DNA of 64,000 nucleotides from contig JAFSKL010000010.1 of the NCBI GenBank assembly GCA_017448985.1, positions 20,250 to 84,249 on the forward strand. Reading direction: 5' to 3'. Shown piece by piece: positions 1 to 64,000 of this stretch. Under the pieces are notes generated by a model. That model saw nothing but the letters and a program-made list of their open reading frames with translations. It ran no database searches and had not been told where the DNA came from. Both the position numbers and the translations under genes were made by a program. This DNA comes from Paludibacteraceae bacterium (GTDB lineage: Bacteria > Bacteroidota > Bacteroidia > Bacteroidales > Paludibacteraceae). The number at the start of each line of letters is the position of its first letter. Position 1 is the stretch's first letter.

Positions 1-198
1 CTTGGCTGCAGCCAGGAACACATACTCCGGTTTCTCCGCCGCAAAGAATGCTTCCACAGCCTCTTGCCGGCACAGGTCCAGTTCCTTATGCGTCCGCGTC
101 ACGATATTCGTATATCCCTGCCGCTGTAATTCCCGTACTATTGCGCTGCCTACCATTCCGCGGTGGCCTGCAACATATATCTTACTGTCTTTTTCCAT
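1..198 (-). CDS. fcl: GDP-L-fucose synthase, N-terminal part (gene runs off the window start)
   Basis: Not in the ORF track (open at the edge). Minus-strand ATG at 198 gives [66 protein letters not shown], with a Rossmann GHRGMVGS motif. It lies directly downstream of gmd. Confidence 0.8.
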
Positions 199-224
199 CA
201 TATTTCCACCAGGTTTCCACCTGT

Positions 225-274
225 CTTCATCGGATACTCATCGGGTGCTCATCGGATGCTTATCGGATGCTCAT
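225..274. repeat. 11-bp tandem array x4 in the gmd-fcl spacer
   Basis: CGGATACTCAT CGGGTGCTCAT CGGATGCTTAT CGGATGCTCAT. Confidence 0.85.
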
Positions 275-298
275 GCCGAGGATACCCTAATCACACCA

Positions 299-1405
299 TT
301 ATTTCACAATACCCTTCTCCAAATATTCGGCAAGGTTAAAGTGTTCTCGTGTCACTTTATGCATATCGTGCTTTACCATCAACTCGACCAGCTCCTCGAA
401 ACTCGTCTTTTGCGGATTCCAGCCCAGTTCCCGTTTCGCCTTACTCGGATCACCCAACAAGTTCACCACATCCGTCGGCCGGTAGAAATCCGGACTCACA
501 GCAACAACAACATCACCCTCTTTAATTTTTAATTTTGAATTTTGAATTTTTAATTCCTCCACGATTCCTTTCTCTTCCACGCCTTTGCCTTCCCAGCGCA
601 ACTCAATACCGGCATGGTGGAAAGCCAACGTCGCGAACTCACGCACCGTATGCTGCACACCCGTTGCTATGACGAAATCTTCGGGCGTATCATGCTGCAG
701 AATGAGCCACATGCACTCCACATAATCCTTGGCATATCCCCAGTCGCGCAACGAATCCAGATTGCCCAAGTACAGGCACTCCTGCAAGCCTTGCGCAATA
801 CGCGCAGCCGCCAAGGTGATCTTACGCGTCACAAACGTCTCGCCGCGACGCTCCGACTCATGGTTAAAGAGGATACCGGAACAGCAGAACATGTTGTACG
901 CCTCGCGGTACTCCTTGATGATCCAATAGCCGTATAATTTAGCCACCGCATAAGGACTGTACGGGTGGAACGGCGTGGTCTCGCTTTGCGGCACTTCCTC
1001 CACCTTGCCGTAGAGTTCGCTCGTCGAGGCCTGGTAGATCTTGCATGTTTTCTCCAGATGATTCGTCCGAACCGCCTCCAGCACACGCAGCACACCTACC
1101 GCATCCACATCGGCCGTGAACTCCGGCGCATCGAAACTGACCTGCACATGACTCTGCGCCGCCAGATTGTATATCTCATCCGGTTGCACCTGTCCTACCA
1201 ACTTAACCAGCGACATCGAGTCGCTCATGTCCGCGTAATGCAAATGAAAATGCGGTTTTCCCTCCAAATGGGCGATCCGCTCGCGAAAATCCACCGAACT
1301 ACGGCGAATAATGCCGTGGACTTCATAACCTTTTTCCAACAAAAACTCCGCCAAATAGGAGCCATCCTGACCCGTAATTCCGGTGATTAGTGCTTTTTTA
1401 GCCAT
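299..1405 (-). CDS. gmd: GDP-mannose 4,6-dehydratase
   Basis: 368 aa. [37 protein letters not shown] and the YAVAKLY catalytic motif. Contains an in-frame heptamer array at 522-556. Confidence 0.95.
522..556. repeat. Heptamer array x5 inside gmd
   Basis: TTAATTT TTAATTT TGAATTT TGAATTT TTAATTC. Encodes [12 protein letters not shown] on the minus strand. Confidence 0.9.
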
Positions 1406-1424
1406 AAAAATTCAAATTAGCGTG

Positions 1425-1456
1425 CAAAGATACAATATTTTTTTCATATGTGCAAG
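1425..1456 (-). promoter_or_regulatory. Bacteroidota-type promoter for gmd-fcl
   Basis: On the minus strand: CTTG, 20 nt spacer, TATCTTTG. Confidence 0.6.
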
Positions 1457-1509
1457 TGCGCGCGTACTTTTTTTAAAAAAAGTGTACATTTTGCCCCATA
1501 AACATAAAA

Positions 1510-1537
1510 TTTTCCATTTTCCATTTTCAATTTTCAA
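1510..1537. repeat. Heptamer array x4, intergenic
   Basis: TTTTCCA TTTTCCA TTTTCAA TTTTCAA. Confidence 0.9.
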
Positions 1538-1547
1538 TTAAAATGAC

Positions 1548-1555
1548 TACCTTTG
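1548..1555 (+). promoter_or_regulatory. -7 box TACCTTTG upstream of the 2-hydroxyacid dehydrogenase gene
   Basis: TAnnTTTG match 28 nt before ATG 1583. No clear -33 TTTG. Confidence 0.5.
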
Positions 1556-3066: not shown

Positions 3067-4248
3067 ATGGATATCGTTGAGCGCTTTCTCAAGTATGTCT
3101 CGTTTTGCACAACGAGCGACGAGAATACAAATATGACGCCTTCCACGCCCGGCCAGATGGAGTTCGCGCGTTTCCTTGCCGATGAACTCAAATCGATAGG
3201 TTTGAAGGACGTTTCCCTCGATTCCAACGGGTATATCATGGCCACCTTGCCGGCCAACGACCAACGACAAATGACCAATGGCCAACGGCCTGTCATCGGC
3301 TTCATCGCCCATATGGACACCTCGCCGGATGTGAGCGGTCGCCATGTCAAACCGAGTATCGTCAAGGCCGAAGAGCGCGATTTCATCGATGCGCGTTATG
3401 CGGGGCAGGAGGTCATCGTCACCGACCAGACCACTCTCCTTGGAGCCGACGACAAAGCCGGTATAGCCGAGATCGTCACGGCCATGGAGTACCTTGTGCA
3501 GCATCCGGAGATCGAGCACGGCAAAGTGCGTATCGGCTTCACACCGGACGAGGAGATAGGTCAGGGAGCCGACCATTTTGATGTGAAGGCTTTCGGCTGT
3601 GACTTCGCCTACACCATGGACGGAGGAGCAATTGGTGAGTTGGAGTTCGAGAACTTCAACGCGGCTTCGTGTAAGATTCATGTTCACGGAGTGAATGTTC
3701 ACCCCGGGTCAGCGTATCACAAGATGCAGAACTCGATGCGTATAGCTTACCAGTTAGCCGTTATGCTACCTCGCTGGGAGACGCCGGAGCACACACAGGG
3801 ATACGAAGGTTTCTACCACCTCATCGGCATGAACGGCACCGTGGAAGAGACCACGCTCAGCTATATCATTCGTGACCATGACAAAGCGCGTTTCGAGAGC
3901 CGCAAACGGGAACTGGAGCACCTCGTCCGCAAGGTGAATCGTGAGTACGGAGACGGAACGGCGGAGATCGAGATACGCGATCAATATTATAACATGCGCG
4001 AGAAGATAGAGCCCGTCATGCACATCATCGAACTCGCCAAGAGTGCGATGGAATCGGTGGAAGTGACACCTGTCATCAAGCCTATTCGTGGCGGAACGGA
4101 TGGCGCAAGGCTCTCCTTCGAGGGACTACCCTGCCCCAATATCTTTGCCGGAGGCGAAAACTTCCACAGCCGATACGAGTATCTCCCGATTCCATCGATG
4201 AAAAAAGCCATGGAAGTGATCCTCCAAATCGTTCAAATGGCTAAATGA
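3067..4248 (+). CDS. pepT: Peptidase T (tripeptide aminopeptidase, M20B)
   Basis: 393 aa. N-terminus [21 protein letters not shown], plus IAHMDTSPD and [11 protein letters not shown] metal-ligand motifs typical of PepT. Confidence 0.9.
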
Positions 4249-4290: not shown

Positions 4291-5380
4291 CAAGACAACT
4301 CCGTTTACGGATATTCACATTGCGTTAGGCGCAAAAATGGCAGAGTTTGCCGGTTTCAATATGCCTATTCAGTACCCTACTGGCATCAATCAGGAGCACA
4401 TGATCGTTCGCGAAGGTGTCGGCGTGTTTGATGTCAGCCACATGGGCGAGTTCTGGGTGAAAGGCGAGAAAGCGCTGGACTTCCTGCAGTATATCACCAC
4501 CAACGACCTGTCGGTCATACCGGCAGGCAAGGCGCAGTACACCTGTATGCCCAACGGCAAAGGCGGTATCGTGGATGATCTGATCATCTATAAATACTCC
4601 ACCACCAAGTACCTCATGGTAGTCAATGCCGGCAATATAGACAAGGACTGGGCGTGGGTCAACCAAATTAAAAATGAAAAATTAAAAATTAAAAATTGGG
4701 GAGATCTCTCTTTGGACAATGCCTCGGACCGTTACGGCCAATTGGCGGTGCAGGGACCGAAGGCGGTGGAACTGCTTCAACTGCTCACCGACCTGGACCT
4801 CAAGTCCATCGACTATTATGCGTTCCGCGAGTGGAGTTTTGCGGGCGTACCGGGTGTCATCCTGTCGAACACCGGTTATACCGGTGCCGGAGGCTTCGAG
4901 CTCTATTTCCCTGCCGACAAAGGGATACAGATCTGGAACGCGCTCTTCGAAGTGGGCAAGCCGTTTGGCCTGGCTCCTATCGGTCTCGGTGCCCGTGACA
5001 GCCTGCGTTTGGAGAAATGGTACTGTCTCTACGGCCACGATATCGACGATACCACCTCACCGCTCGAAGCAGGTCTCGGATGGATCACCAAGCTCGATGC
5101 CAAGGAGTTCATCGACCGCGATTTCCTCAAACAGCAGAAAGCGGAAGGCGTCCAACGCAAACTGGTACACTTCGAGTGCCAGGAGCGTGCTATCCCGCGG
5201 AACGGCTACGACATATGCGATGAATCCGGCAATAATATAGGTCATGTCACCTCCGGCATCATGCTGCCCAACACCAAAACGGGCATCGGAATGGGCTATG
5301 TGCAAACACCCTTTGCCAAGAAAGAGAACATCATCTATATCCGCATCCGCGAGAAACTGATTCCCGCCAAAATTGTCTAA
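4265..5380 (+). CDS. gcvT: Glycine cleavage system aminomethyltransferase T
   Basis: [28 protein letters not shown] and FDVSHMGEF motifs. An alternative start is ATG 4280, because the first 5 codons come from the AAATGGT-type repeat. In-frame heptamer array at 4665-4699. Confidence 0.9.
4665..4699. repeat. Heptamer array x5 inside gcvT
   Basis: AAATTAA AAATGAA AAATTAA AAATTAA AAATTGG. Encodes [11 protein letters not shown]. Confidence 0.9.
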
Positions 5381-5398
5381 ATGCCTCAATGGTTAAAT

Positions 5399-5439
5399 AA
5401 ATGACCAAATGGTAAATGACAAAATGGTAAATAAAAATG
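5399..5439. repeat. Degenerate 7/8-mer AAATGNN array at the patatin gene start
   Basis: AAATGACC AAATGGT AAATGACA AAATGGT AAATAAA AATG. Confidence 0.65.
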
Positions 5440-10217: not shown

Positions 10218-10554
10218 ATCCCGCACCCGTCTGTTCACTCCTCGGTGCTATCCCACCGAGTATCTTTCTTCCTTTCCGCGGAATTGAATCCCGCTATTCT
10301 TCGTCTATTACGTCCAAATTGTATTTGGACATTTTCAGTGTCCCGTGCTCGCGATTTCTATGAGCGAGTCTCCCTGTGCCTGCATAGCTCCCTTTCGGGA
10401 TACCGGTGTCCCGCTATTCCGGGATCCCGCTTGTCTTCGTCTATTTCTCCGGCATTGAATGCCGGTCTCTTTCTATGTCCATTGTGTCGGATGCTATCCG
10501 ACATCAGCAATTTTTGCATTTTTTGCATTTTTCTTACATTTTTGCGCCCCAAAA

Positions 10555-10668: not shown

Positions 10669-10723
10669 AGTGCGTGATAAGTGCGTCGTAAGTGCGCGGT
10701 AAGTGCGCGGTAAGTACGAGATA
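10669..10723. repeat. 11-bp tandem array x5
   Basis: AGTGCGTGATA AGTGCGTCGTA AGTGCGCGGTA AGTGCGCGGTA AGTACGAGATA. Confidence 0.9.
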
Positions 10724-10734
10724 ATAGGGGTTGT

Positions 10735-10981: not shown

Positions 10982-12793
10982 ATGAAGAATATACGGAATT
11001 TTTGTATCATTGCGCATATAGACCACGGCAAGAGTACGCTGGCGGACAGGATGTTAGAGTTGACGGGTACCGTCGATGTTCGCAGCATGGAAGCACAGGT
11101 GCTCGACGACATGGACCTGGAGAAAGAACGGGGCATCACGATAAAGAGCCATGCGATACAGATGAATTATAAGTATAGGGGTGACGGGTTACCGGTTACG
11201 GGTGACGGGATGTTCACTCTTAATCTCATCGATACTCCGGGGCATGTGGATTTCAGTTATGAAGTGAGCCGGAGTATAGCGGCTTGCGAGGGAGCGGTGT
11301 TAGTTGTAGATGCGACGCAAGGCGTTCAGGCGCAGACGATATCGAACCTGTACATGGCCATCGAGCACGACCTCGAGATCATTCCCGTGATCAACAAATG
11401 CGACATGGACAATGCGATGCCGGAGCGTGTGGAGGACGAGATAATAGACCTGTTGGGTTGCAAGCGCGAGGAGATACTGCGTTGTTCGGCGAAGACGGGC
11501 GAGGGCGTGACGGAGATATTAGATGCCATCGTGGAGCGTATCCCGGCACCGGTGGGCGACCCCGACGCACCGCTGCAATGCCTCGTCTTCGACTCTGTAT
11601 TCAACTCGTTCCGCGGTATCATAGCCTACTTCAAAGTGGTGAACGGGACGATGCACACGGGTGACCGCGTGCGGTTTGTGAACACGGGCAAGGAGTACGA
11701 CGCGGACGAGATAGGTATCCTCAAATTAGACATGAGCCCTCGCAAGGAGATAAGCGCCGGCAATGTGGGGTACATCATCTCGGGCATCAAGACCTCGACC
11801 GAGGTCAAAGTGGGCGACACGATCACGCATGTGGCGCGACCGTGCGAGGCGGCGATAGACGGTTTCGAAGAAGCCAAGCCGATGGTGTTCGCGGGCGTCT
11901 ATCCGATAGAGACGGAAGACTACGAGGACCTGCGGGCATCGTTAGAAAAGCTGCAGCTGAACGACGCGAGTCTGACGTTCCAGCCGGAGAGTTCGATGGC
12001 GTTGGGCTTCGGTTTCCGCTGCGGGTTCCTCGGGTTACTGCACATGGAGATAGTGCAGGAGCGTCTGGACCGCGAGTTCGACATGGACGTTATCACCACG
12101 GTGCCGAATGTGTCGTACAATGTCTATACCAAAGACGGCAACATGGTGGAGGTACACAACCCCGCGGGAATGCCGGACCTGACGGAGATAGACCGCATTG
12201 AGGAGCCGTACATCCGCGCGAGCGTCATCACCGTGGCCGATTACATAGGGCCGATCATGACGCTGTGTTTGGGCAAGCGCGGCGAACTGGTCAAGCAGGA
12301 GTACATCAGCGGTAACCGTATGGAGCTGCTGTTCGACATGCCGTTAGGCGAGATAGTGATCGATTTCTACGACAAGCTCAAGTCGATCAGCAAGGGCTAC
12401 GCGTCGTTCGACTGGCACATGAACGGCTTCCGTCCGTCCAACCTCGTCAAGCTGGACATCCTGCTGAACGGCGAGCAAGTGGACGCACTCTCTACCCTCA
12501 CCCATCGCGACAATGCTACGGACTTCGGCCGGCGCATGTGCGAGAAACTCAAAGAGTTGCTACCTCGCCAACAGTTCGACATAGCGATACAGGCGGCGAT
12601 AGGTGCGAAGATCATTGCGCGGGAGACCGTGAAGCAGGTGCGCAAGGATGTGTTGGCCAAGTGTTACGGCGGTGATGTGAGCCGTAAGCGCAAGCTGCTC
12701 GAGAAGCAGAAACGCGGCAAGAAGCGGATGAAACAAATAGGCAATGTGGAAGTGCCGCAAAAAGCCTTCCTCGCTGTTTTGAAACTGGATTAG
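10982..12793 (+). CDS. lepA: Translation elongation factor 4
   Basis: [33 protein letters not shown], and C-terminal [23 protein letters not shown]. In-frame heptamer array at 11179-11209. Confidence 0.95.
11179..11209. repeat. Heptamer array x4 inside lepA
   Basis: GGGTGAC GGGTTAC CGGTTAC GGGTGAC GGG. Encodes [10 protein letters not shown]. Confidence 0.85.
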
Positions 12794-12802: not shown

Positions 12803-12830
12803 AATGAATAATGATTAATGAATAATGAAT
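12803..12830. repeat. AATGAAT-family heptamer array x4 (left flank of the four-helix-bundle gene)
   Basis: AATGAAT AATGATT AATGAAT AATGAAT. Confidence 0.9.
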
Positions 12831-12847
12831 ATCTCGCTGAATGTAAC

Positions 12848-13237
12848 ATGGAAGAAACTAAAATATACAATTTAGGCATATTAGAAGATAAAACATATTC
12901 GTTTGCGCTACGAATCATCAAAGCACATAAATATCTAACAGACAAGAATGAATATATTCTCTCAAAACAACTCCTTCGTTCAGGAACTTCCATTGGGGCA
13001 AACTGTCGAGAGGCCACATTCGCTCAAAGTAAGCAAGACTTTGTTAACAAATTAAGTATAGCTTTAAAAGAGACAAACGAAAGTATCTATTGGATAGAAC
13101 TATTGCATGATTCCGGATTTATTACCGATGATAGCTTTGATTCCATTCATGCTGATGGCACAGAAATATTAAAACTATTAATCGCTATCATTAAAACATC
13201 AAAAAGTAATATCCAAAAAATTAAAGATATTCATTAA
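12848..13237 (+). CDS. Four-helix-bundle protein (23S rRNA intervening-sequence protein family)
   Basis: SIGANCREATFAQSKQDFVNKLSIALKETNESIYWIELL is the family signature. Very AT-rich. Flanked by inverted heptamer arrays. The longer start at 12818 lies inside the repeat. Confidence 0.8.
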   Translation: MEETKIYNLGILEDKTYSFALRIIKAHKYLTDKNEYILSKQLLRSGTSIGANCREATFAQSKQDFVNKLSIALKETNESIYWIELLHDSGFITDDSFDSIHADGTEILKLLIAIIKTSKSNIQKIKDIH

Positions 13238-13266
13238 TCATTATTAATTATTAATTATTCATTAAT
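13229..13266. repeat. Inverted AATGAAT-family array x5 (right flank of the four-helix-bundle gene)
   Basis: ATTCATT AATCATT ATTAATT ATTAATT ATTCATT AAT. This is the reverse complement of the left-flank family. Confidence 0.9.
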
Positions 13267-14574
13267 ATGTTAGAACATTTGATTCCGGCGTGGATGCTAA
13301 TCCCGTTTGTAGTGATGCTGCTATGCATCGCAGTGCTTCCGCTGATTCCTCATGTGGGCGAGTGGTGGGAGCATAATGTACACAAGCTGTATGTTTCGCT
13401 GATCCTCGGCGTGCCCGTAGGTTTCTGGCTGTGCGCACACGGCATGAGTCACGAGCTGATTCACCAGATGATCTTCGACTATGTGCCTTTCATCCTGCTG
13501 CTGATGGCGCTGTTTGTAACGACCGGCGGTATCTGTATCCGAGGTGACTTGAAAGCGACACCGCAGACTAACACGATCATCTTAGCTATCGGCTGGGTGC
13601 TGGCTTCGTTCATGGGAACGACCGGTGCAGCGATGCTGCTCATCCGTCTGCTGTTGGCAACCATCTCGCAACGCAAGTACAAAGTGCACACGGTCCTTTT
13701 CTTCATCGCCATCGTGGCTAACTGCGGCGGTCTGCTGTCTCCGCTCGGCGATCCTCCTTTGTTCCTGCTGTTCCAGAAAGGTACGCCGTTCATGTGGTGG
13801 CTTCAGAACATGCTTCCCGAATGGGCGCTGACAGGAGCTCTGCTTCTCGGTATCTACTTTGTGATCGATGTCTATTTCTACAAGAAAGAGCCGGTGGAGA
13901 ACATCATGGCCGATGTGCGCGAGAGCACCAAGATGCAGGCGACGGGTCTGATCAATATCTTCTGGCTGCTGTGCGTGGTGGCGAGCACGATGTTCATCAA
14001 CTCGACTTATATCCCTGCGATGGGTGGCGAACATGCACCATGGTACCTCAAACTGCTGCGCGAGTGGGTCTTCATCGCCATCATCGCCGGTTCGTGGCTG
14101 ACGACGAAGAAGGAAGTGCGGGTGAAGAACAACTACAGCTGGACGCCTATCCTCGAAGTAGCATGTGTCTTCTTAGGAATTTTCGCCACGATGACTCCTG
14201 CTCTGATGTTCCTGCAGCAGAACCCGCTGCCCGTCACGGCTCCGTGGCAGTTCGTCTATTGTACGGGTGCCCTCTCGGCGTTCCTGGACAATGCGCCTAC
14301 GGCCATGGTCTTCCATGCTACGGCTACCACTATCCCGTTAGCTGAAGGCGTAGAAGCGGTGGCAGGTATCGCACCGGAGTTCATGAAGGCTATCTCGATG
14401 GGTGCCGTGTTCTTCGGAGCGCTCACCTATATCGGTAACGGACCTAACTTCATGGTCAAGTCCATCGCCGAGCAGGAAGGAATCGATATGCCGTCGTTCT
14501 TCGGCTATATGATTAAGTTCAGCTTGATCATTCTCCTGCCTGTTTATATCATCGTTCAAATAATATTTATTTGA
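13267..14574 (+). CDS. Ion transporter of the ArsB/NhaD (citrate transporter-like) permease superfamily
   Basis: 435 aa, polytopic. GGLLSPLGDPPLFL and FLDNAPTA motifs are typical of NhaD-type Na+/H+ antiporters. Confidence 0.7.
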   Translation: MLEHLIPAWMLIPFVVMLLCIAVLPLIPHVGEWWEHNVHKLYVSLILGVPVGFWLCAHGMSHELIHQMIFDYVPFILLLMALFVTTGGICIRGDLKATPQTNTIILAIGWVLASFMGTTGAAMLLIRLLLATISQRKYKVHTVLFFIAIVANCGGLLSPLGDPPLFLLFQKGTPFMWWLQNMLPEWALTGALLLGIYFVIDVYFYKKEPVENIMADVRESTKMQATGLINIFWLLCVVASTMFINSTYIPAMGGEHAPWYLKLLREWVFIAIIAGSWLTTKKEVRVKNNYSWTPILEVACVFLGIFATMTPALMFLQQNPLPVTAPWQFVYCTGALSAFLDNAPTAMVFHATATTIPLAEGVEAVAGIAPEFMKAISMGAVFFGALTYIGNGPNFMVKSIAEQEGIDMPSFFGYMIKFSLIILLPVYIIVQIIFI

Positions 14575-14578
14575 AAAA

Positions 14579-14606
14579 GGACAATGGAAAATGGATAATG
14601 TACAAT
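14579..14606. repeat. Heptamer array x4 (left arm)
   Basis: GGACAAT GGAAAAT GGATAAT GTACAAT. Confidence 0.9.
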
Positions 14607-14613
14607 TAATATT

Positions 14614-14641
14614 TCATTTTCAATTTTCAATTTTCAATTTG
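14614..14641. repeat. Heptamer array x4 in opposite orientation (right arm)
   Basis: TCATTTT CAATTTT CAATTTT CAATTTG. Confidence 0.9.
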
Positions 14642-16240: not shown

Positions 16241-16243
16241 TTT

Positions 16244-16271
16244 AATGAATAATTAATAATGAATAATGAAT
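16244..16271. repeat. AATGAAT-family array x4
   Basis: AATGAAT AATTAAT AATGAAT AATGAAT. Nearly identical to 12803-12830, including the following ATCT. Confidence 0.9.
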
Positions 16272-16307
16272 ATCTTTTTATGTGAATATGCTTTCGTCTC
16301 ACGAGAT

Positions 16308-16335
16308 AATCATTAATCATTAACCATTGATAATT
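16308..16335. repeat. Inverted AATGAAT-family array x4, overlapping the ftsZ stop
   Basis: AATCATT AATCATT AACCATT GATAATT. Confidence 0.85.
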
Positions 16336-17587
16336 ACTTTCTTCTAATCCATCCGAACGGTCGGTGAGCAGGTTGCTCCGGCTGTTCCTCCGCTTTGGGT
16401 TCGTCCTCGACGGTAATGACCACCTCTTCGGCAGAGGTCGATTCGGGCCGTTCCTTCGTCTGACGAGGCAGCGTGTCACCCCCTTCGGCAAACAGCGTCT
16501 CGCTCAGGTCGATCAGCTGTGCCTTCTCGTCCTCTAAGGGTTTGGGCACCTGCGGCGGGTAGTTGGCATCGATAGCCTCGGCTATCGTTTTCTTGCCTTC
16601 CACCTCTTCCTCGGATGGCAGCCCGTCGACCTTGTATCCCGTGGCAATGACCGTGACGCGCACTTCCTCGCCCAGCGTCTCGTCGATGGAAGCGCCCCAC
16701 TGCACTTCGATGTCCTCGCCCACTTCCTGGACGAAATCGTTGATCTGGTCGATCTCCTCCATGACGATGGCGTGCTCGGTGGAGCAGTAGAACTGCAGCA
16801 GGATTCGTTCGGCGCCGTGCACATCGTTGGTGTTGACCAGCGGCGAGTTGAGGGCATCGTTGATGGCATTGGTGATACGCCGTTCGCCGGAAGCCCGACC
16901 GATGTTCATGATGGCTACTCCACCCTTGCGGAGTGTGTTGCGCACATCGGCAAAGTCCGTATTGATGTACCCGGGCACCGTGATGATCTCCGCAATCGCT
17001 CTGGCTGCGTTGGCCACCACATCGTCCGACTTGCTGAACGCATTGAGCAGGTTGAGTTCCGGGTAGATCTGTTTGAGTTTCTCATTATTAATAATGAGAA
17101 GCGCGTCCACATGCTTGGCCAGACGAGCCACGCCTGTCATTGCTTTCTCTATCTTCTTCTTGCCCTCGAACGCAAACGGGATCGTGACGATACCAACGGT
17201 CAGTATGCCCATTTCCTGCGCCACCTCCGCCACGACGGCCGAAGCACCGGTACCCGTACCGCCACCCATTCCGGCGGTGATGAACAGCATCTGCGTGCCA
17301 TCATTGAGCGCCTCGCGTATATGCTCGCGGCTCTCCTCGGCGTACTGACGCGCGGTCTCGGGATCGCCGCCGGCACCCAGACCCGGACCCAATTGCAGCT
17401 TACTCGGTACCGACGATTTGATGAGCACCTGGCGATCGGTGTTGCAAACGAGGAAGGTCACATCTTTCAGACCCTGACGGTGCATGTAGTTGACCGCATT
17501 GCAGCCGCCTCCACCTACGCCGATCACTTTGATGATACTATCCTCTGTCAAGCCTTCCAAAGGCAGTGTAATTAAATTATCTTCCAT
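16334..17587 (-). CDS. ftsZ: Cell division protein FtsZ
   Basis: GVGGGGCNAVN and GMGGGTGTGA tubulin signature motifs. Confidence 0.97.
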   Translation of the reverse strand: MEDNLITLPLEGLTEDSIIKVIGVGGGGCNAVNYMHRQGLKDVTFLVCNTDRQVLIKSSVPSKLQLGPGLGAGGDPETARQYAEESREHIREALNDGTQMLFITAGMGGGTGTGASAVVAEVAQEMGILTVGIVTIPFAFEGKKKIEKAMTGVARLAKHVDALLIINNEKLKQIYPELNLLNAFSKSDDVVANAARAIAEIITVPGYINTDFADVRNTLRKGGVAIMNIGRASGERRITNAINDALNSPLVNTNDVHGAERILLQFYCSTEHAIVMEEIDQINDFVQEVGEDIEVQWGASIDETLGEEVRVTVIATGYKVDGLPSEEEVEGKKTIAEAIDANYPPQVPKPLEDEKAQLIDLSETLFAEGGDTLPRQTKERPESTSAEEVVITVEDEPKAEEQPEQPAHRPFGWIRRK

Positions 17588-19691: not shown

Positions 19692-19719
19692 TTCAGTATT
19701 CAGTATTCAGCATTCAGAC
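19692..19719. repeat. Heptamer array x4 spanning the murC stop and the murC-ftsQ spacer
   Basis: TTCAGTA TTCAGTA TTCAGCA TTCAGAC. Encodes the MurC tail SLNAEY-stop. Confidence 0.9.
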
Positions 19720-29321: not shown

Positions 29322-29345
29322 ATTGTAGATTGTAAATTGTAAATT
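29311..29345. repeat. Heptamer array x5 upstream of tpiA
   Basis: GACAATT GTAGATT GTAGATT GTAAATT GTAAATT. Includes the TAG stop of the upstream gene. Confidence 0.9.
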
Positions 29346-30677: not shown

Positions 30678-30691
30678 GTGACTTCGTCACG

Positions 30692-39194: not shown

Positions 39195-39238
39195 TGATGT
39201 CCGTAATGGTCGCGAGATGGTCGCGACAATGACCGCTA
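39195..39238. repeat. 11-mer array x4 in the pheT leader
   Basis: TGATGTCCGTA ATGGTCGCGAG ATGGTCGCGAC AATGACCGCTA. Confidence 0.7.
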
Positions 39239-43232: not shown

Positions 43233-43264
43233 TTCCGGTATCCCGGTATAACGGTAAAACGACA
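43233..43264. repeat. Degenerate 8-mer array x4 after prfC
   Basis: TTCCGGTA TCCCGGTA TAACGGTA AAACGACA. Confidence 0.6.
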
Positions 43265-44586: not shown

Positions 44587-44606
44587 TTTAAAGTTGAAAG
44601 TGTATT
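44586..44606. repeat. Short GTTGAAA-family array at the permease junction
   Basis: GTTTAAA GTTGAAA GTGTATT. Includes the TTG start of the ABC-2 permease. Confidence 0.5.
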
Positions 44607-45265: not shown

Positions 45266-45288
45266 ATCGTAAATCGTACATCATTATA

Positions 45289-50520: not shown

Positions 50521-50637
50521 AAGTTTACTATTTTTAAGATTTTGCCTCTCTAAACGCACAAGGGGTAATACCGTGGTTAAACCGTGGGTAAACCGTGGTT
50601 AAACCGTATGCACAAAAATGTACGATTATTAAGATTT
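50521..50637 (-). repeat. ~118-bp dispersed intergenic element, copy B (serC / serA spacer)
   Basis: Reverse complement matches 27487-27604. It has the same orientation relative to the flanking genes. Confidence 0.9.
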
Positions 50638-51739: not shown

Positions 51740-53383
51740 TTACTTCAAAGTGTAGTGTTTATGATTCCAAGCTGTTGATTTGATTCTGGGCAGCGTGATG
51801 ATACCCTCTTTGGGTTTCTTGCCGGCCAAGAACAATGCATATGCCACCGCCGCCATATCGTCAGATTTAGCAGCCGCAGGCTGAGCATTTTCAATTTTCA
51901 ATTTTCCATTTTCCATTTCAAGCCCCTTGCGCTTCGCAAGGTCTTGATTGAACTGCTCCTTCGCCAAGCCGCTCTTGTACTCGCGGTACTGCTTGTCATG
52001 CATCGCGAACTCGAACAGCTCTTCGTCATCCTGACCGCGATCCCAACCGAGTTCTTTCATCTCTTTAATGTACTGCGGCAGTACATCCGGATAGAGTTTC
52101 TGCGGGTCGTCGGTATAGAACTCGAAGCCTTTCTCTTTGGCCAACTCGACGATTTCGGGAGCCAGCTCTCCGGGCAGTTTGCCGGCCTTGCCGAGGATCA
52201 TGCCCCACATAGCCGGATCCATACGCGTGAACGGTTTCTCGCCCATCGAACGGCTGAACAGGTTCATCAGCGCCGCGTTCTTCACATATTGGCTGAACGG
52301 CGTCACCAGACACGGCGTGCCGAGCATCGGCCATATACGCTGTACCTCGTCGAACAACTGCACGAGCAACTCATCCTCGCTCAGTTCCTTCTCGCCTTTC
52401 TTCTTCAGGTTCGCATTGATGGCAGCATGCATACCTTTGAGGTCTGCCATCAGACTACCCATCATGCCGCCGGGAAGACCGCAGCCGACTAACAGCGAAC
52501 TCATCAGCGCGTTCTTCGGGTCAATCCAATAGCCGAGGAAATCGTCGATAAACTCCTGCGTCAGGCTCCGCGCCTCCATGTAGGCTTTCATGTTGATGTC
52601 CTTCACCAGGAATCCCGCGTCGCGCAGCATCGCCTGAATAGTGATCACATCCGGATGTACCTTGCCCCAACTGAGCGGCTCCATCGCCACATCCAGTACA
52701 TCGCCGCCGGCTTTGGCCACTTCGAGCATCGAAGCCACGCTGAAACCGGGACCGCAATGTCCGTGGTACTGAATGATGATATCCGGATGTTTCTCCTTGA
52801 TGGCTGCCACAATCACGCCTAACATATGCGGACGACCGATACCGGCCATGTCCTTGAGGCATATCTCTTGCGCACCGCCTGCAATCAGCTGTTCCGCTAA
52901 GTTGATATAGTATTCCGCCGTATGCACTTTCGAATAGGTGATACACATCGTCGCTTGTGCGGTCATACCTGCCTCTTTCGCCCACTTGATGGACGGGATA
53001 ATGTTCCGCGGGTCATTCAGACCGCAGAAAATACGGGTGATGTTCGTACCCTGCGCATGCTTCACTTTGTACATCAGTTTGCGTACATCTGCGGGCACAG
53101 GGTTCATGCGTAGCGCATTTAGACCGCGATCCAGCATATGCGTTTGGATACCAGCCTCGTTGAACGGCTTGCAGAAGGTACGAACCGCCTGATTGGGGTT
53201 CTCGCCGTACAACAGGTTCACCTGCTCACTCGCGCCGCCGTTCGTCTCCACGCGGTCAAAACAACCCATGTCAATAATCACAGGCGCTACACGCGCCAAC
53301 TGATCTTTCCGCGGCACGTACTTACCACTACTCTGCCACATGTCGCGGTAAACAAGACTAAATTGAATCTCTTTCTTTCCCAT
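51740..53383 (-). CDS. Carboxyltransferase subunit of the oxaloacetate decarboxylase / transcarboxylase 5S type (no biotinyl domain visible)
   Basis: HMGL-like TIM barrel (RDMWQS, LKDMAGIG, QYHGHCGPG) followed by a PYC_OADA-like region. No AMKM biotinylation motif. In-frame heptamer array at 51896-51930. Confidence 0.75.
   Translation of the reverse strand: MGKKEIQFSLVYRDMWQSSGKYVPRKDQLARVAPVIIDMGCFDRVETNGGASEQVNLLYGENPNQAVRTFCKPFNEAGIQTHMLDRGLNALRMNPVPADVRKLMYKVKHAQGTNITRIFCGLNDPRNIIPSIKWAKEAGMTAQATMCITYSKVHTAEYYINLAEQLIAGGAQEICLKDMAGIGRPHMLGVIVAAIKEKHPDIIIQYHGHCGPGFSVASMLEVAKAGGDVLDVAMEPLSWGKVHPDVITIQAMLRDAGFLVKDINMKAYMEARSLTQEFIDDFLGYWIDPKNALMSSLLVGCGLPGGMMGSLMADLKGMHAAINANLKKKGEKELSEDELLVQLFDEVQRIWPMLGTPCLVTPFSQYVKNAALMNLFSRSMGEKPFTRMDPAMWGMILGKAGKLPGELAPEIVELAKEKGFEFYTDDPQKLYPDVLPQYIKEMKELGWDRGQDDEELFEFAMHDKQYREYKSGLAKEQFNQDLAKRKGLEMENGKLKIENAQPAAAKSDDMAAVAYALFLAGKKPKEGIITLPRIKSTAWNHKHYTLK
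51896..51930. repeat. Heptamer array x5 inside the carboxyltransferase gene
   Basis: CATTTTC AATTTTC AATTTTC CATTTTC CATTTCA. Encodes [12 protein letters not shown] on the minus strand. Confidence 0.9.
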
Positions 53384-59292: not shown

Positions 59293-60011
59293 AATACACC
59301 TACGAATATGAGATGAAGTACCAGGAGTCAGATGCGCATAAGAAAGTGCGTTTGTACCACCTGGAAGAATACTTGCTGGAAGTGGCTGGCAAGGCGGCGG
59401 ACGACTTGGGATACGGTATTGCTGCCATGCATCCGAGAGGGCTGGGATGGATACTGACGAGGCTGTCACTCGAGATGTATGAGCTGCCGAGACATAATGA
59501 CCGGATACGGTTCGAGACATGGATAGAATCCAATGCACATATGCTCAGTACGCGTGATTTTCGCCTCTTCCTCGGTGACCGCCTTATCGGGCAATGCAAG
59601 TCCGTTTGGGCAGTTCTCGACTTGCAGAAACGCGAGCTCGTCAATATCTTCGACGAACCGATTTTCGAAGGCTGCGTGGACGGCGAGGTGATCGACATGC
59701 CGCGTGTACGGATGACGACCATTCCCGAACCCACAGGCTGCGTACCGCATAAGATCGTCTATTCGGACATCGACTATAACGGACATTGCAACAGCTGCCG
59801 TTACCTGCAGGCCATGACCGATGCCTTCCTGCCCGACTACTACGGAAAGAAAGTGCGCCTGGATATCAACTATTCAAAGGAAGTGATGCTTGGCGAGGAA
59901 CTGCAGACATTCTATCTCGTTTCGTCCGACGGTGTGCAATACCAACAGAAGAACCAAAGCGGCGAGACCTCGTGCTCAGCCAAGATTTCAATTAGCGAAT
60001 TAGAGAATTAG
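59289..60011 (+). CDS. Acyl-ACP thioesterase
   Basis: Double hot-dog layout. YSDIDYNGHCNSCRYLQ is typical of the FatA/B-like bacterial acyl-ACP thioesterase family. Overlaps the previous stop by 4 nt. Confidence 0.75.
   Translation: MKYTYEYEMKYQESDAHKKVRLYHLEEYLLEVAGKAADDLGYGIAAMHPRGLGWILTRLSLEMYELPRHNDRIRFETWIESNAHMLSTRDFRLFLGDRLIGQCKSVWAVLDLQKRELVNIFDEPIFEGCVDGEVIDMPRVRMTTIPEPTGCVPHKIVYSDIDYNGHCNSCRYLQAMTDAFLPDYYGKKVRLDINYSKEVMLGEELQTFYLVSSDGVQYQQKNQSGETSCSAKISISELEN
59988..60011. repeat. 8-mer array x3 at the thioesterase 3' end
   Basis: TCAATTAG CGAATTAG AGAATTAG. Encodes ISELEN-stop. Confidence 0.7.
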
Positions 60012-60015
60012 AGAT

Positions 60016-62448: not shown

Positions 62449-62457
62449 ACTTGCTTT

Positions 62458-62547
62458 TTACTTATGTTTATGACGATTCTTACGCAGACGTTTTTTACGT
62501 TTGTGCGTGGACATCTTATGTCTCTTATGCTTTTTTCCGTTTGGCAT
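62458..62547 (-). CDS. 29-aa extremely basic peptide (bS22 / AURKAIP1-COX24-like small ribosome-associated protein family)
   Basis: Not in the ORF track (too short). Minus strand reads MPNGKKHKRHKMSTHKRKKRLRKNRHKHK-stop, ending 9 nt upstream of the rng ATG. Confidence 0.6.
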   Translation of the reverse strand: MPNGKKHKRHKMSTHKRKKRLRKNRHKHK

Positions 62548-62599
62548 AATTGAAATAATGATTTAATAATTGTTATTGAAATTCAGTTAATTATCGTTT

Positions 62600-62872
62600 T
62601 TAGCGTACCTTTGCCGAAAAATCTTTGGCAGGTTTGAAATGAACGACTCTGTGTGCGGGCACGTCAACGGAGATACAACGGTTGATGTCGCGAGCCGTTT
62701 TGGCGGCACGGTGTTTGCATACAAAACTGCCAAATCCGCGAAGGAATACATCATTGTCTTCTGCCAATTGCTTCTTCACCGTATCCATAAAGCCCTCTAC
62801 AATCACGCTTATCGTACGCTTGTCGTACCCCGTAGAGATTGCCAATTCATTAATGAGTTCAGCTTTTGTCAT
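62600..62872 (-). CDS. hup: HU family DNA-binding protein
   Basis: MTKAELINELA...FLRGFGSF...R.ARNP-like arm...VHFKPAKDF. Start set at ATG 62872, downstream of -7 box 62917-62924. Confidence 0.9.
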   Translation of the reverse strand: MTKAELINELAISTGYDKRTISVIVEGFMDTVKKQLAEDNDVFLRGFGSFVCKHRAAKTARDINRCISVDVPAHRVVHFKPAKDFSAKVR

Positions 62873-62916
62873 ATCTTTTTTTACTGTTTTAGTTAATAAA
62901 AATCGAAAAACGGCTG

Positions 62917-62924
62917 CAAAGTTA
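62917..62924 (-). promoter_or_regulatory. -7 box TAACTTTG for the HU gene
   Basis: TAnnTTTG on the minus strand, 45 nt upstream of ATG 62872. Confidence 0.5.
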
Positions 62925-62963
62925 CTACAAATTATTGAAATACGAAAGTTTTTGGCAAAAAAA

Positions 62964-62995
62964 ATTGCAAATTTGTGTTTTTTTTTGTACTTTTG
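62964..62995 (+). promoter_or_regulatory. mutY promoter
   Basis: ATTG, 20 nt spacer, TACTTTTG. Confidence 0.5.
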
Positions 62996-63037
62996 CACCG
63001 ATTTTTGAGAAATTTAACGCTAAATGGCGCATTTTTT

Positions 63038-64000
63038 ATGCTCAACACGCTATTATATAGTCATTTATACCGATGGTATGAATCCAATCGTCGCATTTTG
63101 CCTTGGCGCGAGACGGAAGACCCGTATCGCATATGGCTGAGTGAGGTCATTTTGCAGCAAACTCGTGTGGCACAGGGTCTTGACTATTACCTTCGTTTCG
63201 TTTCCCGATGGCCGACGGTTGAGGACCTGGCTTCGGCGGACGAAGCGGAAGTGCTGCGTGAATGGCAGGGGCTGGGCTATTACAGCCGGGCACGCAATCT
63301 GCATAAGGCAGCGAGGATGATTGTCGAAAGCAAAGGAGGCTTAAAGGCTGGTCAAACCGTGTTCCCAACTTCGTTTGAAGCGATTCGTGCGTTGCCGGGT
63401 ATAGGCGATTATACGGCAGGAGCCATCGCTTCGTTCGCCTATGACATGCCTTATCCGGCCGTGGACGGCAATGTCTATCGGGTCGTGGCACGGTTGTTGG
63501 ATATAGACGAGCCTTTTGATACGACGGCCGGAAAGAAACTCTTTCGCAAGCATATAGAGCAGTTGCTGGACCGTGAACACCCGCGCCTGTTCAACTCTGC
63601 GATTATGGAGTTCGGAGCCTTGCAATGTACGCCAGTCTTAGGCGACAACTGCCTCAGTTGTCCGCTCCAGGCGCAATGTCTGGCCTATGCGCACGGCACG
63701 GCGGAACTGCTGCCTGTTCGCAAGCCGAGACCAAAAGTGCGTGACCGATGGTTCACTTATCATATCTATCTGACGACAATGGACAATGGACAATGGACAA
63801 TGGATAATGTTTGTACACTTATCCGGCGCCGAGAAGAAAAAGACATCTGGTATCACTTGTATGAGTTTCCGTGTGAGGAATCTAACAGTAGTCTAACAGG
63901 CGAAGCCGGTCCAACAGCAAAGCGGTCCAACAGCAAAGCGATCCTACAGGCACAGCCGGTCTATGCGTTTACGCATATTTTGTCTCACCAACGCATACAC
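63038..64000 (+). CDS. mutY: A/G-specific adenine DNA glycosylase (3' end beyond the window)
   Basis: Not in the ORF track (open at the edge). ILPWRETEDPYRIWLSEVILQQTRV, GLGYYSRARNLH, LPGIGDYTAGAI and the 4Fe-4S motif C..V......C..CPL...C. Contains arrays at 63774-63808 and 63879-63961. Confidence 0.9.
   Translation, partial: MLNTLLYSHLYRWYESNRRILPWRETEDPYRIWLSEVILQQTRVAQGLDYYLRFVSRWPTVEDLASADEAEVLREWQGLGYYSRARNLHKAARMIVESKGGLKAGQTVFPTSFEAIRALPGIGDYTAGAIASFAYDMPYPAVDGNVYRVVARLLDIDEPFDTTAGKKLFRKHIEQLLDREHPRLFNSAIMEFGALQCTPVLGDNCLSCPLQAQCLAYAHGTAELLPVRKPRPKVRDRWFTYHIYLTTMDNGQWTMDNVCTLIRRREEKDIWYHLYEFPCEESNSSLTGEAGPTAKRSNSKAILQAQPVYAFTHILSHQRIH
63774..63808. repeat. Heptamer array x5 inside mutY
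   Basis: CGACAAT GGACAAT GGACAAT GGACAAT GGATAAT. Encodes TMDNGQWTMDN. Confidence 0.9.
63879..63961. repeat. Compound 11-mer and 16/17-mer tandem tract inside mutY
   Basis: AATCTAACAGT AGTCTAACAGG, then GCCGGTCCAACAGCAAA GCGGTCCAACAGCAAA GCGATCCTACAGGCACA GCCGGTC. Confidence 0.75.

Follow-up and report, generated by a model that had tools for sequence, protein, structure and literature searches.

Tandem repeats with a unit of seven nucleotides (nt) are known from several groups of bacteria. The short tandemly repeated repetitive (STRR) sequences of heterocystous cyanobacteria are built from the units STRR1-3, e.g. CCCCAGT. Long simple sequence repeats (LSSR) were reportedly treated by Mrazek et al. 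in 2007, and heptanucleotides are said to be the commonest there among repeats of 5-11 nt. In the case of STRR and LSSR, several heptamer families occur per genome, abundance is lineage-specific, and polymerase slippage has been proposed. Among repeats of 5-11 nt, heptamers were found to be the most frequent class in several scattered groups (PMC4679880, PMC4692102). They have been recorded since 2007 as the commonest longer simple repeats in bacteria, and there has been little detailed work on them (PMC4692102). Rehm et al. (2015) described heptameric G-rich repeats, GGGNATC or GGGGA(C/T)T, in Xanthomonas and Nostoc (PMC4692102). MacGregor (2015) described TAACTGA direct repeats in marine Beggiatoaceae, some cyanobacteria and five Bacteroidetes including Paludibacter propionicigenes, and these repeats were proposed as sites of RNA-binding regulators (PMC4679880). 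We analysed short tandem arrays in a 64-kb stretch of DNA, hereafter the window (contig JAFSKL010000010.1, positions 20,250 to 84,249), from a ruminant-gut Paludibacteraceae metagenome-assembled genome (MAG). Of this genome, the window and its flanks were read.

The arrays probably reflect a lineage-specific mutational process in which segments of 7 nt, and less often of 8 or 11 nt, are multiplied locally in tandem throughout the clade. We hold this reading with limited confidence; slippage or template switching, followed by a selective filter, would be its course.

Number, spread and turnover of the arrays

Arrays were detected with Tandem Repeats Finder (TRF), and 20 dinucleotide-preserving shuffles of the window served as the null. 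The 85 TRF rows corresponded to 68 non-redundant arrays, and the shuffles gave 2-11. Period-7 arrays with at least three copies numbered 29 in the window, compared to 0-1 per shuffle, and exact period-7 runs of at least two copies numbered 35, compared to 3.7 in simulation. With a cut at 2.5 or more copies, 48 arrays were retained (period 7, 30; period 8, 5; period 9, 4; period 11, 6; others, 3), which gave a density of about one array per 1.3 kb. An earlier, sequence-only reading of the window had claimed many short tandem arrays with 7-mers dominant, and the count confirmed it, with about seven weak arrays in shuffles. Every array on its list was recovered, two of them weakly (44586, about 2.5 units, GTTTAAAGTTGAAAGTG; 39195, located at 39206-39226 with 1.9 copies). 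Three listed arrays, at 2956, 37464 and 60749, were split off because their periods were multiples of 3, as in ordinary coding repeats. They had periods of 21 (2956-3012), 9 (37464-37532), and 27 and 18 (60749-60856), were in frame and lay outside the phenomenon. Periods 5 and 6 showed no excess in the window, with exact-run counts at or slightly under expectation. The excess was confined to period 7 and, less so, to 8 and 11, which meant that it was not general low complexity.

The lengths were narrowly distributed. Twenty-six of the 30 heptamer arrays measured 26-37 nt, with a median of 4.5 units, and the length mode was the same for intragenic and junction arrays. Isolated two-copy heptamer repeats were found just three times in the window, and the chance level was 3.7. 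Single heptamers of the families outside arrays were at expectation in the window, giving no signal of an expansion-prone motif. The units resembled each other: 102 of 435 unit pairs were within one mismatch, compared to a mean of 23 and a maximum of 56 in the composition null. Both orientations were present, as had been supposed from the letters alone, and in the GGAAAAT family 10 arrays were sense and 2 antisense with respect to transcription (GGAAAAT on the mRNA strand).

The array density was compared among Bacteroidota loci. The clade refers to the loci L001-L010, which are the nearest species representatives and come from rumen Paludibacteraceae/Bacteroidales MAGs with a MurC identity of 67-77%. 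The densities were as follows.

Window: 7-mer arrays, 47 per 100 kb
Clade loci L001-L010: 7-mer 24.8, 8-mer 6.0 and 11-mer 3.0 arrays per 100 kb
70 other Bacteroidota loci: 7-mer 3.9, 8-mer 1.4 and 11-mer 0.6 arrays per 100 kb

Periods 6, 9 and 12 were not enriched in the clade loci. A few isolated, unrelated loci (L056, L075) were also array-rich. The window MurC was identical to NCBI MBQ6790403.1, from a Paludibacteraceae MAG, and was also present on contigs, as long as 285 kb, from ruminant-gut metagenomes.

Local precursors of arrays were recognized in lepA and murC. In the case of lepA, six array-free relatives read AAG GGT TAC ACC, i.e. AA[GGGTTAC]ACC, and the array unit GGGTTAC was this ancestral heptamer. 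In murC, where the array sites are numbered 1-4, the site 2 array started at ATGGACAAT, and the same sequence was found in array-free relatives. The site 3 array repeated the native ...TCCTTCAAGGG motif (the ...SFKG seed), with 21-28 nt of native upstream sequence overwritten and the protein length unchanged. At the murC 3' end, the array multiplied CTGAATA around the stop codon. These local seeds favoured growth of the arrays in place rather than the arrival of foreign elements.

The conserved block murC-ftsQ-ftsA-ftsZ-...-lepA showed that species carried arrays of their own at the same junctions. The ftsA/ftsZ junction held GGAAAAT units in the window and TTTAAAG units in the sister species L085, and consisted of just TAATATG in L001 and L004 (a 4-nt junction). 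Five different unit families were found across species at the ftsZ/hyp316 junction. Array-free species had junctions of -1 to +4 nt at orthologous sites, e.g. ATGA or TAATG, and the CitMHS/VTT junction was 2 nt in L085. The convergent hyp316/VTT junction had an array in L085 and L001. Between the window and L085 (87-96% identity), 11 sites were compared; five had the same family, four had another family, and two were array-free. The array at the MurC 3' end had one extra unit in L085. At murC site 1, most of the clade had an array with two allelic unit types, and the units across species were related variants, TC[CA]AT[TC]N. At a site in the GT2 gene, GGGTTAC units were present in L001 and L006, GTTGAAA units in L085, a 9-mer in the other sister species, L097, and none in the window. 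The arrays in lepA (+36 nt, 12 codons) and at murC site 4 (+27 nt) were confined to the window species and L085.

For the strain comparison, we used four contigs (L081-84) that were 98.6% identical to the window over 20 kb. Five indel blocks were seen, four of them at arrays. The FtsA/FtsZ array had one unit more in these contigs than in the window (position 17605), and L101, from another sample with an identical PF05635 protein, lacked exactly one 7-nt unit at 13245. Other changes left the length unaltered. At 19848, GGACAAT was present three, two or one times among strains, and L085 had GGAAAAT. At 26125, the order was GG,GG,GG,TG,TG or GG,GG,TG,TG,TG, so that the variant boundary moved. These length-neutral shifts at 19848 and 26125 are concerted evolution in progress. 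An active process, as opposed to ancient fixed sequence, had been proposed in the sequence-only reading, and it was upheld by the heptamer density, about 12-fold above that of the other Bacteroidota loci, by the lineage-specific gains in lepA and murC and the unit changes between species at the same site, and by the clean 7-nt copy-number changes and length-neutral unit conversions between near-identical strains.

Three arrays were wholly replaced between strains: murC site 2, VTT/CitMHS and LbH/PyrH. The murC site 2 alleles were the heptamer array and an 8-mer array (CTCGAGAC, three copies), the latter being the allele of the sister species L085 and L097. At VTT/CitMHS, L081-84 carried an inverted-pair module unlike that of the window, and at LbH/PyrH, L081-82 had CGTAGTTTx units inside a 6-16% diverged tract. 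The divergence around the other two was 2-5% each, compared to a mean of 1.4%. Because the replaced arrays lay in diverged tracts and one was a sister-species allele, cassette swapping between 98.6%-identical strains was rejected, and recombination imports of older alleles were favoured over rewriting. Import was clear at LbH/PyrH and modestly supported at murC site 2 and VTT/CitMHS.

Sites in genes and at gene junctions

Gene names in the window follow the annotations of the strain contigs. The gene content was housekeeping: lepA, citMHS, ftsZ, ftsA, ftsQ, murC, kdtA, hisS, tpiA, pyrH, frr, rsgA, pheT, prfC, an RNase E/G gene, mutY and others. Twenty-one of the 48 arrays (44%) were intragenic, and the open reading frame (ORF) stayed open through all 21. 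They were found in MurC (four), KdtA (two and the C-terminus), PheT (two), MutY (two), LepA, GcvT, HisS, an M20 peptidase, an epimerase, an oxaloacetate-decarboxylase-like gene and RsgA. The sequence-only reading had placed arrays inside essential genes, and this was borne out, with in-frame arrays in the conserved genes of MurC, LepA, PheT, KdtA, GcvT and MutY. The sense strand of the intragenic arrays was A-rich (42%). The arrays within or reaching into genes were as follows.

521..555, minus strand: heptamer array, 5 copies (sense AATTAAA/AATTCAA), in frame in the epimerase gene at 299-1405
3254..3287, plus strand: heptamer array, 4.9 copies (CCAACGA), in frame in the M20 peptidase gene
4665..4697, plus strand: heptamer array, 4.7 copies (AAATTAA), inside GcvT, occupying the sole stop-free frame
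11179..11209, plus strand: heptamer array, 4.4 copies (GGGTGAC/GGGTTAC), inside lepA
19692..19717, minus strand: heptamer array, 3.7 copies (sense CTGAATA), MurC C-terminus and stop codon
19848..19873, minus strand: heptamer array, 3.7 copies with 100% match (sense GGACAAT), murC site 4
20166..20197, minus strand: heptamer array, 4.6 copies (sense CTTTCAA), murC site 3
20364..20396, minus strand: heptamer array, 4.7 copies (sense GGACAAT/GGAAAAT), murC site 2, beta-hairpin loop
20903..20929, minus strand: heptamer array, 3.9 copies (sense TCCATTK), murC site 1
25612..25644, plus strand: heptamer array, 4.7 copies (AATTAAA), in frame in KdtA, common to L097
25727..25759, plus strand: heptamer array, 4.7 copies (GGAAAAT family), in frame in KdtA, with variant units in L097
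26125..26168, plus strand: heptamer array, 6.3 copies (GGAAAAT then TGAAAAT), KdtA C-terminus and stop codon, filling the KdtA/HisS junction
26844..26863, plus strand: weak heptamer array, 2.9 copies (GAATCAG), inside HisS
32214..32247, plus strand: 9-mer array, 3.8 copies, inside RsgA, a borderline member with a period divisible by 3
40616..40646, plus strand: heptamer array, 4.4 copies (GGAAAAT family), in frame in PheT
41052..41082, plus strand: heptamer array, 4.4 copies (AAGTTGA), in frame in PheT
51887..51918, minus strand: heptamer array, 4.6 copies (sense GGAAAAT/TGAAAAT), in frame in the oxaloacetate-decarboxylase-like gene
63775..63809, plus strand: heptamer array, 5 copies (GACAATG), in frame in MutY
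63907..63949, plus strand: 16-mer array, 2.7 copies, inside MutY

In the PheT array at 41052..41082, one unit was altered (TTGA to TTTA), keeping the frame stop-free. In the AlphaFold model of MurC (predicted local distance difference test, pLDDT, 85), sites 1, 2 and 4 were in predicted coil, and site 3 was a helix. The 48 clade MurC homologues, which were 70-84% identical, differed mainly at the same 5-6 hot spots with hypervariable periodic peptides. Peptides in the clade included GLLNDQMVNGQMVDGPD, GVVESRESRVESLPD and NANANANAD at site 2, and MERTKEENERMK and LANGQWTMDNGK at site 4, where insertion-free homologues had GG.

The other main site was the junction between co-directional genes, where 26 arrays were found. 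An array made up most of 17 of the 21 co-directional junctions with gaps of 23-116 nt. The sequence-only reading, in which most co-directional junctions below about 100 nt consisted largely of an array, held for these gaps and failed for overlaps and gaps of up to 21 nt, which made up the remainder; 18 of 33 junctions below 100 nt had an array. Arrays were present at none of the five convergent and three of the six divergent junctions. Thirteen of the 26 junction arrays overlapped or abutted the upstream stop codon, so that the last residues and the stop codon of the upstream protein were array-encoded. The median distance from the end of the array to the next start codon was 10 nt. The arrays outside genes were as follows.

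192..221, minus strand: 11-mer array, 2.7 copies (sense TCTGGTGGAAA), between two epimerase genes, overlapping the downstream gene start
227..274, minus strand: 11-mer array, 4.4 copies (sense GCATCCGATGA), epimerase-gene junction, stops in three sense frames
1508..1539, no strand assigned: heptamer array, 4.6 copies (AATTTTC/AATTTTCC, GGAAAAT family), divergent intergenic region
5398..5432, plus strand: 15-mer array, 2.3 copies, GcvT/patatin junction, within one copy of a 63-nt direct repeat (partner at 4226-4288)
10507..10532, plus strand: 9-mer array, 2.9 copies (GCATTTTTT), 764-nt intergenic region upstream of lepA
10669..10724, plus strand: 11-mer array, 4.3-5 copies (AGTGCGCGGTA), same region, unit-variant order different in L085
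10733..10768, plus strand: 11-mer array, 3.3 copies (GTCAGGTACGC), same region
14573..14600, plus strand: heptamer array, 4 copies (GGACAAT/GGAAAAT), reaching over the CitMHS stop codon, as the left member of an inverted pair
14612..14640, plus strand: heptamer array, 4.3 copies (ATTTTCA), inverted partner, ending 3 nt before the VTT start codon
17593..17625, minus strand: heptamer array, 4.6 copies (sense GGAAAAT), filling the FtsA/FtsZ junction
28143..28202, plus strand: heptamer array, 8.5 copies (TGACAAT/GGAAAAT, with a 28-nt higher-order unit), spanning the DUF1599 stop and the MauE start
29314..29345, plus strand: heptamer array, 4.6 copies (AATTGTA), MauE/TpiA junction
30106..30143, plus strand: 8-mer array, 4.8 copies (AACTAGTC/TACTAGTC), TpiA/LbH junction
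30691..30718, plus strand: 8-mer array, 3.4 copies (GTTAAATG), LbH/PyrH junction
32027..32062, plus strand: heptamer array, 5.1 copies (ATTGGTG/ATTGGTA), RRF/RsgA junction
34077..34112, minus strand: 8/16-mer array (ACTAG core), junction of two oxidoreductase subunit genes, inverse of the 30106 array
39206..39226, plus strand: weak 11-mer repeat, 1.9 copies, upstream of pheT
43236..43261, plus strand: 8-mer array, 3.2 copies (CGGTATAA), RF3/MFS junction
44580..44600, plus strand: weak array, about 2.5 units (GTTTAAA/GTTGAAA), MFS/ABC2 junction
45263..45282, plus strand: heptamer array, 2.9 copies (TAAATCG), overlapping the ABC2 stop codon
55539..55561, minus strand: heptamer array, 3.3 copies (sense CTGATAA/CTGAATA/CTGAAAA, TAACTGA-like), overlapping the beta-CASP stop, 9 nt from the DAPDH start
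59990..60014, plus strand: 8-mer array, 3.1 copies (AATTAGAG), running across the thioesterase stop and up to the TSCPD start codon

The sense strand of the junction arrays had A.36, T.32, G.20 and C.11. It was similar to that of the 30 nt preceding each of the 52 start codons of the window (A.38, T.33), in which no Shine-Dalgarno motif was seen. Most junction units contained TGA, TAA or TAG on the sense strand. Stops were present in at least two sense frames in 17 of 24 junction arrays and in all three frames in 11 of 24, compared to 9 of 24 on the antisense strand, a weak asymmetry. Simple sense arrays were predicted to be unstructured and folded no better than shuffles, with z-scores of -2.1 to +1.3. 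The ACTAG array and the inverted pair (14560-14650) exceeded shuffles only weakly, with z about -2, and neither the ~110-bp element described below nor the 11-mer region folded better than shuffles. A structured-RNA reading was dropped. Rfam at gathering thresholds and ARAGORN gave no known RNA and no tRNA on the window.

A few features of the intergenic regions were seen beside the arrays. A promoter-like motif, AAAAATTTGCATATATGCAAAA..TTGTAACTTTGCAC, had ten unusually well-conserved copies of about 58 nt each, at 8274, 10550, 10914, 21127, 24797, 35992, 39013, 45855, 57085 and 62959. It fits the Bacteroidetes -33 TTTG / -7 TAnnTTTG promoter type. Two such motifs lay in the unusually long intergenic region upstream of lepA (10217-10982, 764 nt), whose three arrays were conserved in L085; this region had no homology-supported ORF and folded no better than shuffles. 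The gcvT gene was flanked by a 63-nt direct repeat (4226-4288 and 5370-5432; 81% identity), and the M20/GcvT and GcvT/patatin junctions copied each other, including the first codons downstream (ATGGTAAATGAC, M-V-N-D).

Two kinds of composite element also carried arrays. A dispersed intergenic element of ~110 bp was present in two copies that were about 86% identical, at 27483-27606 (plus strand) and 50520-50640 (minus strand). It began at the stop codon of the upstream gene, contained (TTTAACCACGG)x3, was bounded by the internal direct repeat AAATCTTAA, and had no Rfam match. The second kind was a hairpin module, (AATGAWT)n-ATCT...AGAT-(AWTCATT)n, of 85-110 nt. It was species-specific and present at 2-3 sites per 20 kb; the window had two sites, and L081-84 had an additional one. 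Their arrays were as follows.

27521..27554, plus strand: 11-mer array, 3.1 copies (TTTAACCACGG), in the ~110-bp element copy at 27483-27606
50563..50607, minus strand: 11-mer array, 3.5 copies (sense TTTAACCACGG), in the copy at 50520-50640
12803..12831, plus strand: heptamer array, 4.1 copies (AATGAAT), LepA/IVP junction, left arm of a hairpin module
13228..13267, plus strand: heptamer array, 5.3 copies (ATTCATT/ATTAATT), IVP/CitMHS junction, right arm of the hairpin module
16243..16272, minus strand: heptamer array, 4.3 copies (plus strand TAATGAA), FtsZ/hyp316 junction, arm of a hairpin module
16307..16336, minus strand: heptamer array, 4.3 copies (plus strand TAATCAT), other arm, overlapping the ftsZ stop codon

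One hairpin module enclosed a PF05635 gene (139 aa; '23S rRNA intervening sequence protein', Avd-like four-helix-bundle family) between lepA and citMHS, at window 12800-13267. Its inverted arms, (AATGAAT)n-ATCTCG and AAAGAT-(ATTCATT)n, recall the inverted repeats that bound rRNA intervening sequences. In L085, the PF05635 gene was absent and one arm was retained. The gene was considered as a mobile partner and rejected, as the identical protein was found in one genomic context only. Two 'solo' modules (window 16238-16340; L081 16468-16571), seen in this species only, had the same arms and ATCT...AGAT core, with loops of 28 or 47 nt. Their predicted RNA fold was not better than that of shuffles, and they may derive from the PF05635 cassette by loss of the gene, or be REPIN-like elements (REPIN, repetitive extragenic palindromic doublet forming hairpins). 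The short-read Logan contigs L100 and L101 started within the AATGAAT array (window ~12810), which suggests that arrays fragment short-read assemblies. In L010 (18445-19480), luxS (PF02664) was inserted between citMHS and lepA. It was flanked on both sides by the composite array GGTGATTGG-(GAATTGA)x4-TTGGTGA and adjoined a perfect (GAGTCAA)x8.3 array. Arrays may be substrates for gene insertion or rearrangement. An analogy to integron attC sites, suggested by the match of GTTAAAT to GTTRRRY, was rejected, since the genes flanked belong to the housekeeping core.

Origin of the arrays

In the preferred reading, an array would grow in place from a pre-existing heptamer by slippage or template switching during replication or repair. 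It would persist only where about 30 extra bases are tolerated, that is, at stop-to-start junctions of co-directional genes and in surface loops and termini of proteins. In proteins, purifying selection would keep just stop-free insertions in multiples of 3. At junctions, AT-rich, stop-containing units would fit the AT-rich, Shine-Dalgarno-less Bacteroidota leader, and since the units contain a stop codon, the upstream reading frame would be insensitive to 7-nt steps. Established arrays would undergo concerted evolution, with slippage of one unit up or down outside genes and length-neutral unit conversion everywhere, so that the site persists while the unit drifts. Homologous recombination would carry whole alleles between lineages.

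Several observations weighed against this reading. Stepwise birth-and-death slippage predicts many short precursors, whereas the length was peaked (median 4.5 units) and two-copy repeats were at chance. The in-frame gains in lepA and the essential murC were 36, 27, 21 and 15 nt, rather than a series of multiples of 21. Growth by one 7-nt unit at a time would lead through frameshifted states; arrays were either born nearly full length or grew in 21-nt steps that were later trimmed. Units at unlinked loci were more alike than composition predicts (102 vs 23 pairs), a 32-nt array was identical at 26136 and 51887, and GGGTTAC and GTTGAAA arrays recurred within unrelated genes of related genomes. 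The sharing of units across loci could be a sign that certain sequences are preferred or that units are copied from one locus to another. The choice of period 7, then 8 and 11, rather than 5, 6 or 10, is left without explanation. A failure of mismatch repair on loops of more than 4 nt would predict periods 5 and 6 too and does not account for it. Together, the period, the length peak and the sizes of the gains leave real room for bursts of ~30 nt per event, the alternatives being 21-nt steps with trimming or contraction of longer arrays to a stable sub-threshold length.

We considered four other explanations. That the arrays are chance low-complexity sequence or an assembly artefact has next to no probability. 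In its favour were the AT-rich units and the short Logan contigs that end at arrays. Reading frames that stay open through the arrays spoke against it, and it was refuted by the shuffles and by the independent assemblies of several samples, in which the arrays were identical; for this last reason an assembly artefact is very unlikely. Arrays might instead be written in single bursts by a specific activity, e.g. a repair or priming polymerase that reiteratively copies a 7-nt template for ~30 nt per event. The peaked length without an excess of two-copy precursors is consistent with this, as are the common length mode inside genes and at junctions, the 27- and 36-nt in-frame gains in murC and lepA without viable 7-nt intermediates, and the specificity for periods 7, 8 and 11 with 5 and 6 unenriched. 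A similar four-unit preference is seen in the unrelated G-rich heptamers of Xanthomonas and Nostoc (PMC4692102); because the units here are AT-rich, the G-quadruplex account of that preference (PMC4692102) cannot apply to them. We regard bursts as an unlikely origin all the same. No candidate enzyme was found within the 64 kb visible, and the clean one-unit polymorphisms showed that ordinary slippage acts too. The peak could also come from a slippage threshold with contraction of longer arrays or from selection on length, and the in-frame gains from 21-nt steps with in-frame trimming. It is doubtful that the clade has a distinct burst-type activity that writes ~30 nt of tandem local-template copies per event, even in essential genes. 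If true, this activity would lie behind the hypervariable loops in housekeeping proteins and the expanded operon junctions, and it would also underlie the four-unit preference of the Xanthomonas and Nostoc repeats.

Insertion of arrays as miniature mobile elements by a transposase or recombinase, followed by divergence, was judged quite improbable. Such elements include the miniature inverted-repeat transposable element (MITE), REPINs and cyanobacterial small dispersed repeats. The recurrence of unit families at unlinked loci and in related genomes would fit this explanation, and so would the identical 32-nt array (26136-26167 and 51887-51918), the two-copy ~110-bp element with its 11-mer array, the species-specific hairpin modules at 2-3 sites per 20 kb, one of them around the PF05635 gene, and the direct copies of junction repeats that flank luxS in L010 and gcvT in the window. 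However, when copies were aligned with their flanks, the simple arrays had no constant length, constant ends or conserved flanks, and in the junction sequences that were read no target duplication stood out, although no search aimed at it was made. Local seeds accounted for lepA and several murC arrays, units changed gradually in orthologous arrays, and the PF05635 protein was known, in identical form, from a single genomic context. No transposase, including the type associated with repetitive extragenic palindromes (RAYT), was found among the annotations of the 64-kb window plus flanks. MITEs, small dispersed repeats and REPINs are marked by a defined length, inverted termini or a palindrome, target-site duplication and shared flanks, and the simple arrays did not fit this pattern; repeat-element anatomy was limited to the ~110-bp element and the hairpin modules. 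Of the three mechanisms proposed in the sequence-only reading, slippage seeded by a local motif gained support (lepA, murC sites 2 and 3, murC 3' end), and a mobile mini-element did not fit the simple arrays, although two composite dispersed elements do carry arrays. It is equally improbable that the junction arrays exist for a function, as frame-independent stop/restart spacers, as unstructured A/U-rich Shine-Dalgarno-less leaders, or as sites of RNA-binding regulators. A function is suggested by the 17 of 21 roomy co-directional junctions with an array, compared to none of three comparable convergent ones (gaps 27, 33 and 352 nt), by the short distance to the following start codon, by the stops in the sense units, by the lack of structure in simple sense arrays, and by the leader-like composition; the same logic was proposed for the TAACTGA repeats (PMC4679880). 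On the other hand, intragenic arrays have the same period and length, relatives work with junctions of -1 to +4 nt at the same sites, arrays occur at convergent junctions of relatives such as hyp316/VTT, and no motif was conserved across species. A three-frame stop module as the purpose of the arrays was unconvincing, since the difference between sense and antisense strands was small. Given the intragenic arrays, the array-free overlapping junctions in relatives and the convergent-junction arrays, function was not needed to explain the data. A role in the translation of downstream cistrons, as A/U-rich frame-insensitive spacers, is plausible, and any function is possibly a secondary use and not the cause of the arrays.

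Comparison with known repeat systems

Some known systems could be set aside. Clustered regularly interspaced short palindromic repeats (CRISPR) were ruled out, as the units are contiguous, of 7-11 nt, and the arrays are 20-60 nt in total. Phase-variable contingency loci were ruled out because the arrays lie in housekeeping genes and are in frame in every strain compared. The arrays are like repetitive extragenic palindromes (REP), bacterial interspersed mosaic elements (BIME), REPINs and the cyanobacterial small dispersed repeats in that short species-specific sequences crowd co-directional junctions, and the hairpin modules resemble REPIN anatomy. In contrast to these, the simple arrays are tandem and non-palindromic, have no fixed length, and fold no better than shuffles.

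The heptamers of Xanthomonas and Nostoc share more with the arrays: period 7, dispersal throughout the genome, about four units, variable copy number, and a position between co-directional ORFs, at most 50 nt from the stop codon or overlapping it (PMC4692102). However, their units are G-rich and quadruplex-forming, whereas those of the window are AT-rich, belong to many families and are intragenic in 44% of the arrays. The density here would be about ten times higher if the window is representative.

The TAACTGA repeats are likewise heptamers just upstream of Shine-Dalgarno-less start codons, overlapping upstream stops; their forward units stop all three frames, and sets inside ORFs occur occasionally (PMC4679880). 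In the window, many junction arrays lay upstream of Shine-Dalgarno-less starts, but the strand asymmetry was weak and 44% of the arrays were intragenic. Only the units at 55539 (CTGATAACTGAATACTGAAAACT) and 19692 (CTGAATA) were TAACTGA-like. There is essentially one unit in that system, and related heptamers are rarely repeated, whereas dozens of variants were found here. Copy number there falls steadily from 2, and here it peaks at 4-5. Sets within ORFs are peripheral there and lie in internal loops of essential enzymes here. The view in the sequence-only reading that no equivalent was described for Bacteroidota was not quite right, since five Bacteroidetes have a few TAACTGA heptamer repeats (PMC4679880). 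That paper contains nothing with the density or number of unit families of the window, and a full-text literature search gave no description of such dense multi-family arrays in Bacteroidales, with the same paper as the nearest.

The window showed the features of heptanucleotide simple sequence repeats, namely period 7, lineage-specific abundance, a position at co-directional junctions with about four units, and strain polymorphism. The 21 of 48 intragenic arrays departed from that pattern, and non-triplet arrays in coding regions are reported to be disfavoured in LSSR and STRR. The arrays are not STRR in the strict sense, as the host is of another phylum (Paludibacteraceae) and the units are different; this Bacteroidales clade is not among the lineages described.

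The clade is favourable for study. The density extrapolates to roughly a thousand or more arrays per genome, and many unit families, metagenomic strains and sister species are available. Where an array lies in a universally conserved gene, one can see directly what the ancestral sequence was, which heptamer was the seed and how much was gained. For the mechanism, two results are informative: the peaked length without two-copy precursors and the preference for four to five units in AT-rich sequence. In practical terms, the arrays inflate operon junctions and give proteins such as MurC, LepA and PheT hypervariable peptides. Short-read assemblies break at them, and in work on rumen metagenomes they will mislead gene calling and strain typing.

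The arrays belong to the known heptanucleotide repeat phenomenon, together with STRR, LSSR, TAACTGA and GGGNATC, in a new lineage. What is new here is this ruminant-gut Bacteroidales lineage itself, the high density, the many unit families, the many arrays in conserved genes, and a preference for four to five units in units incapable of forming G-quadruplexes.

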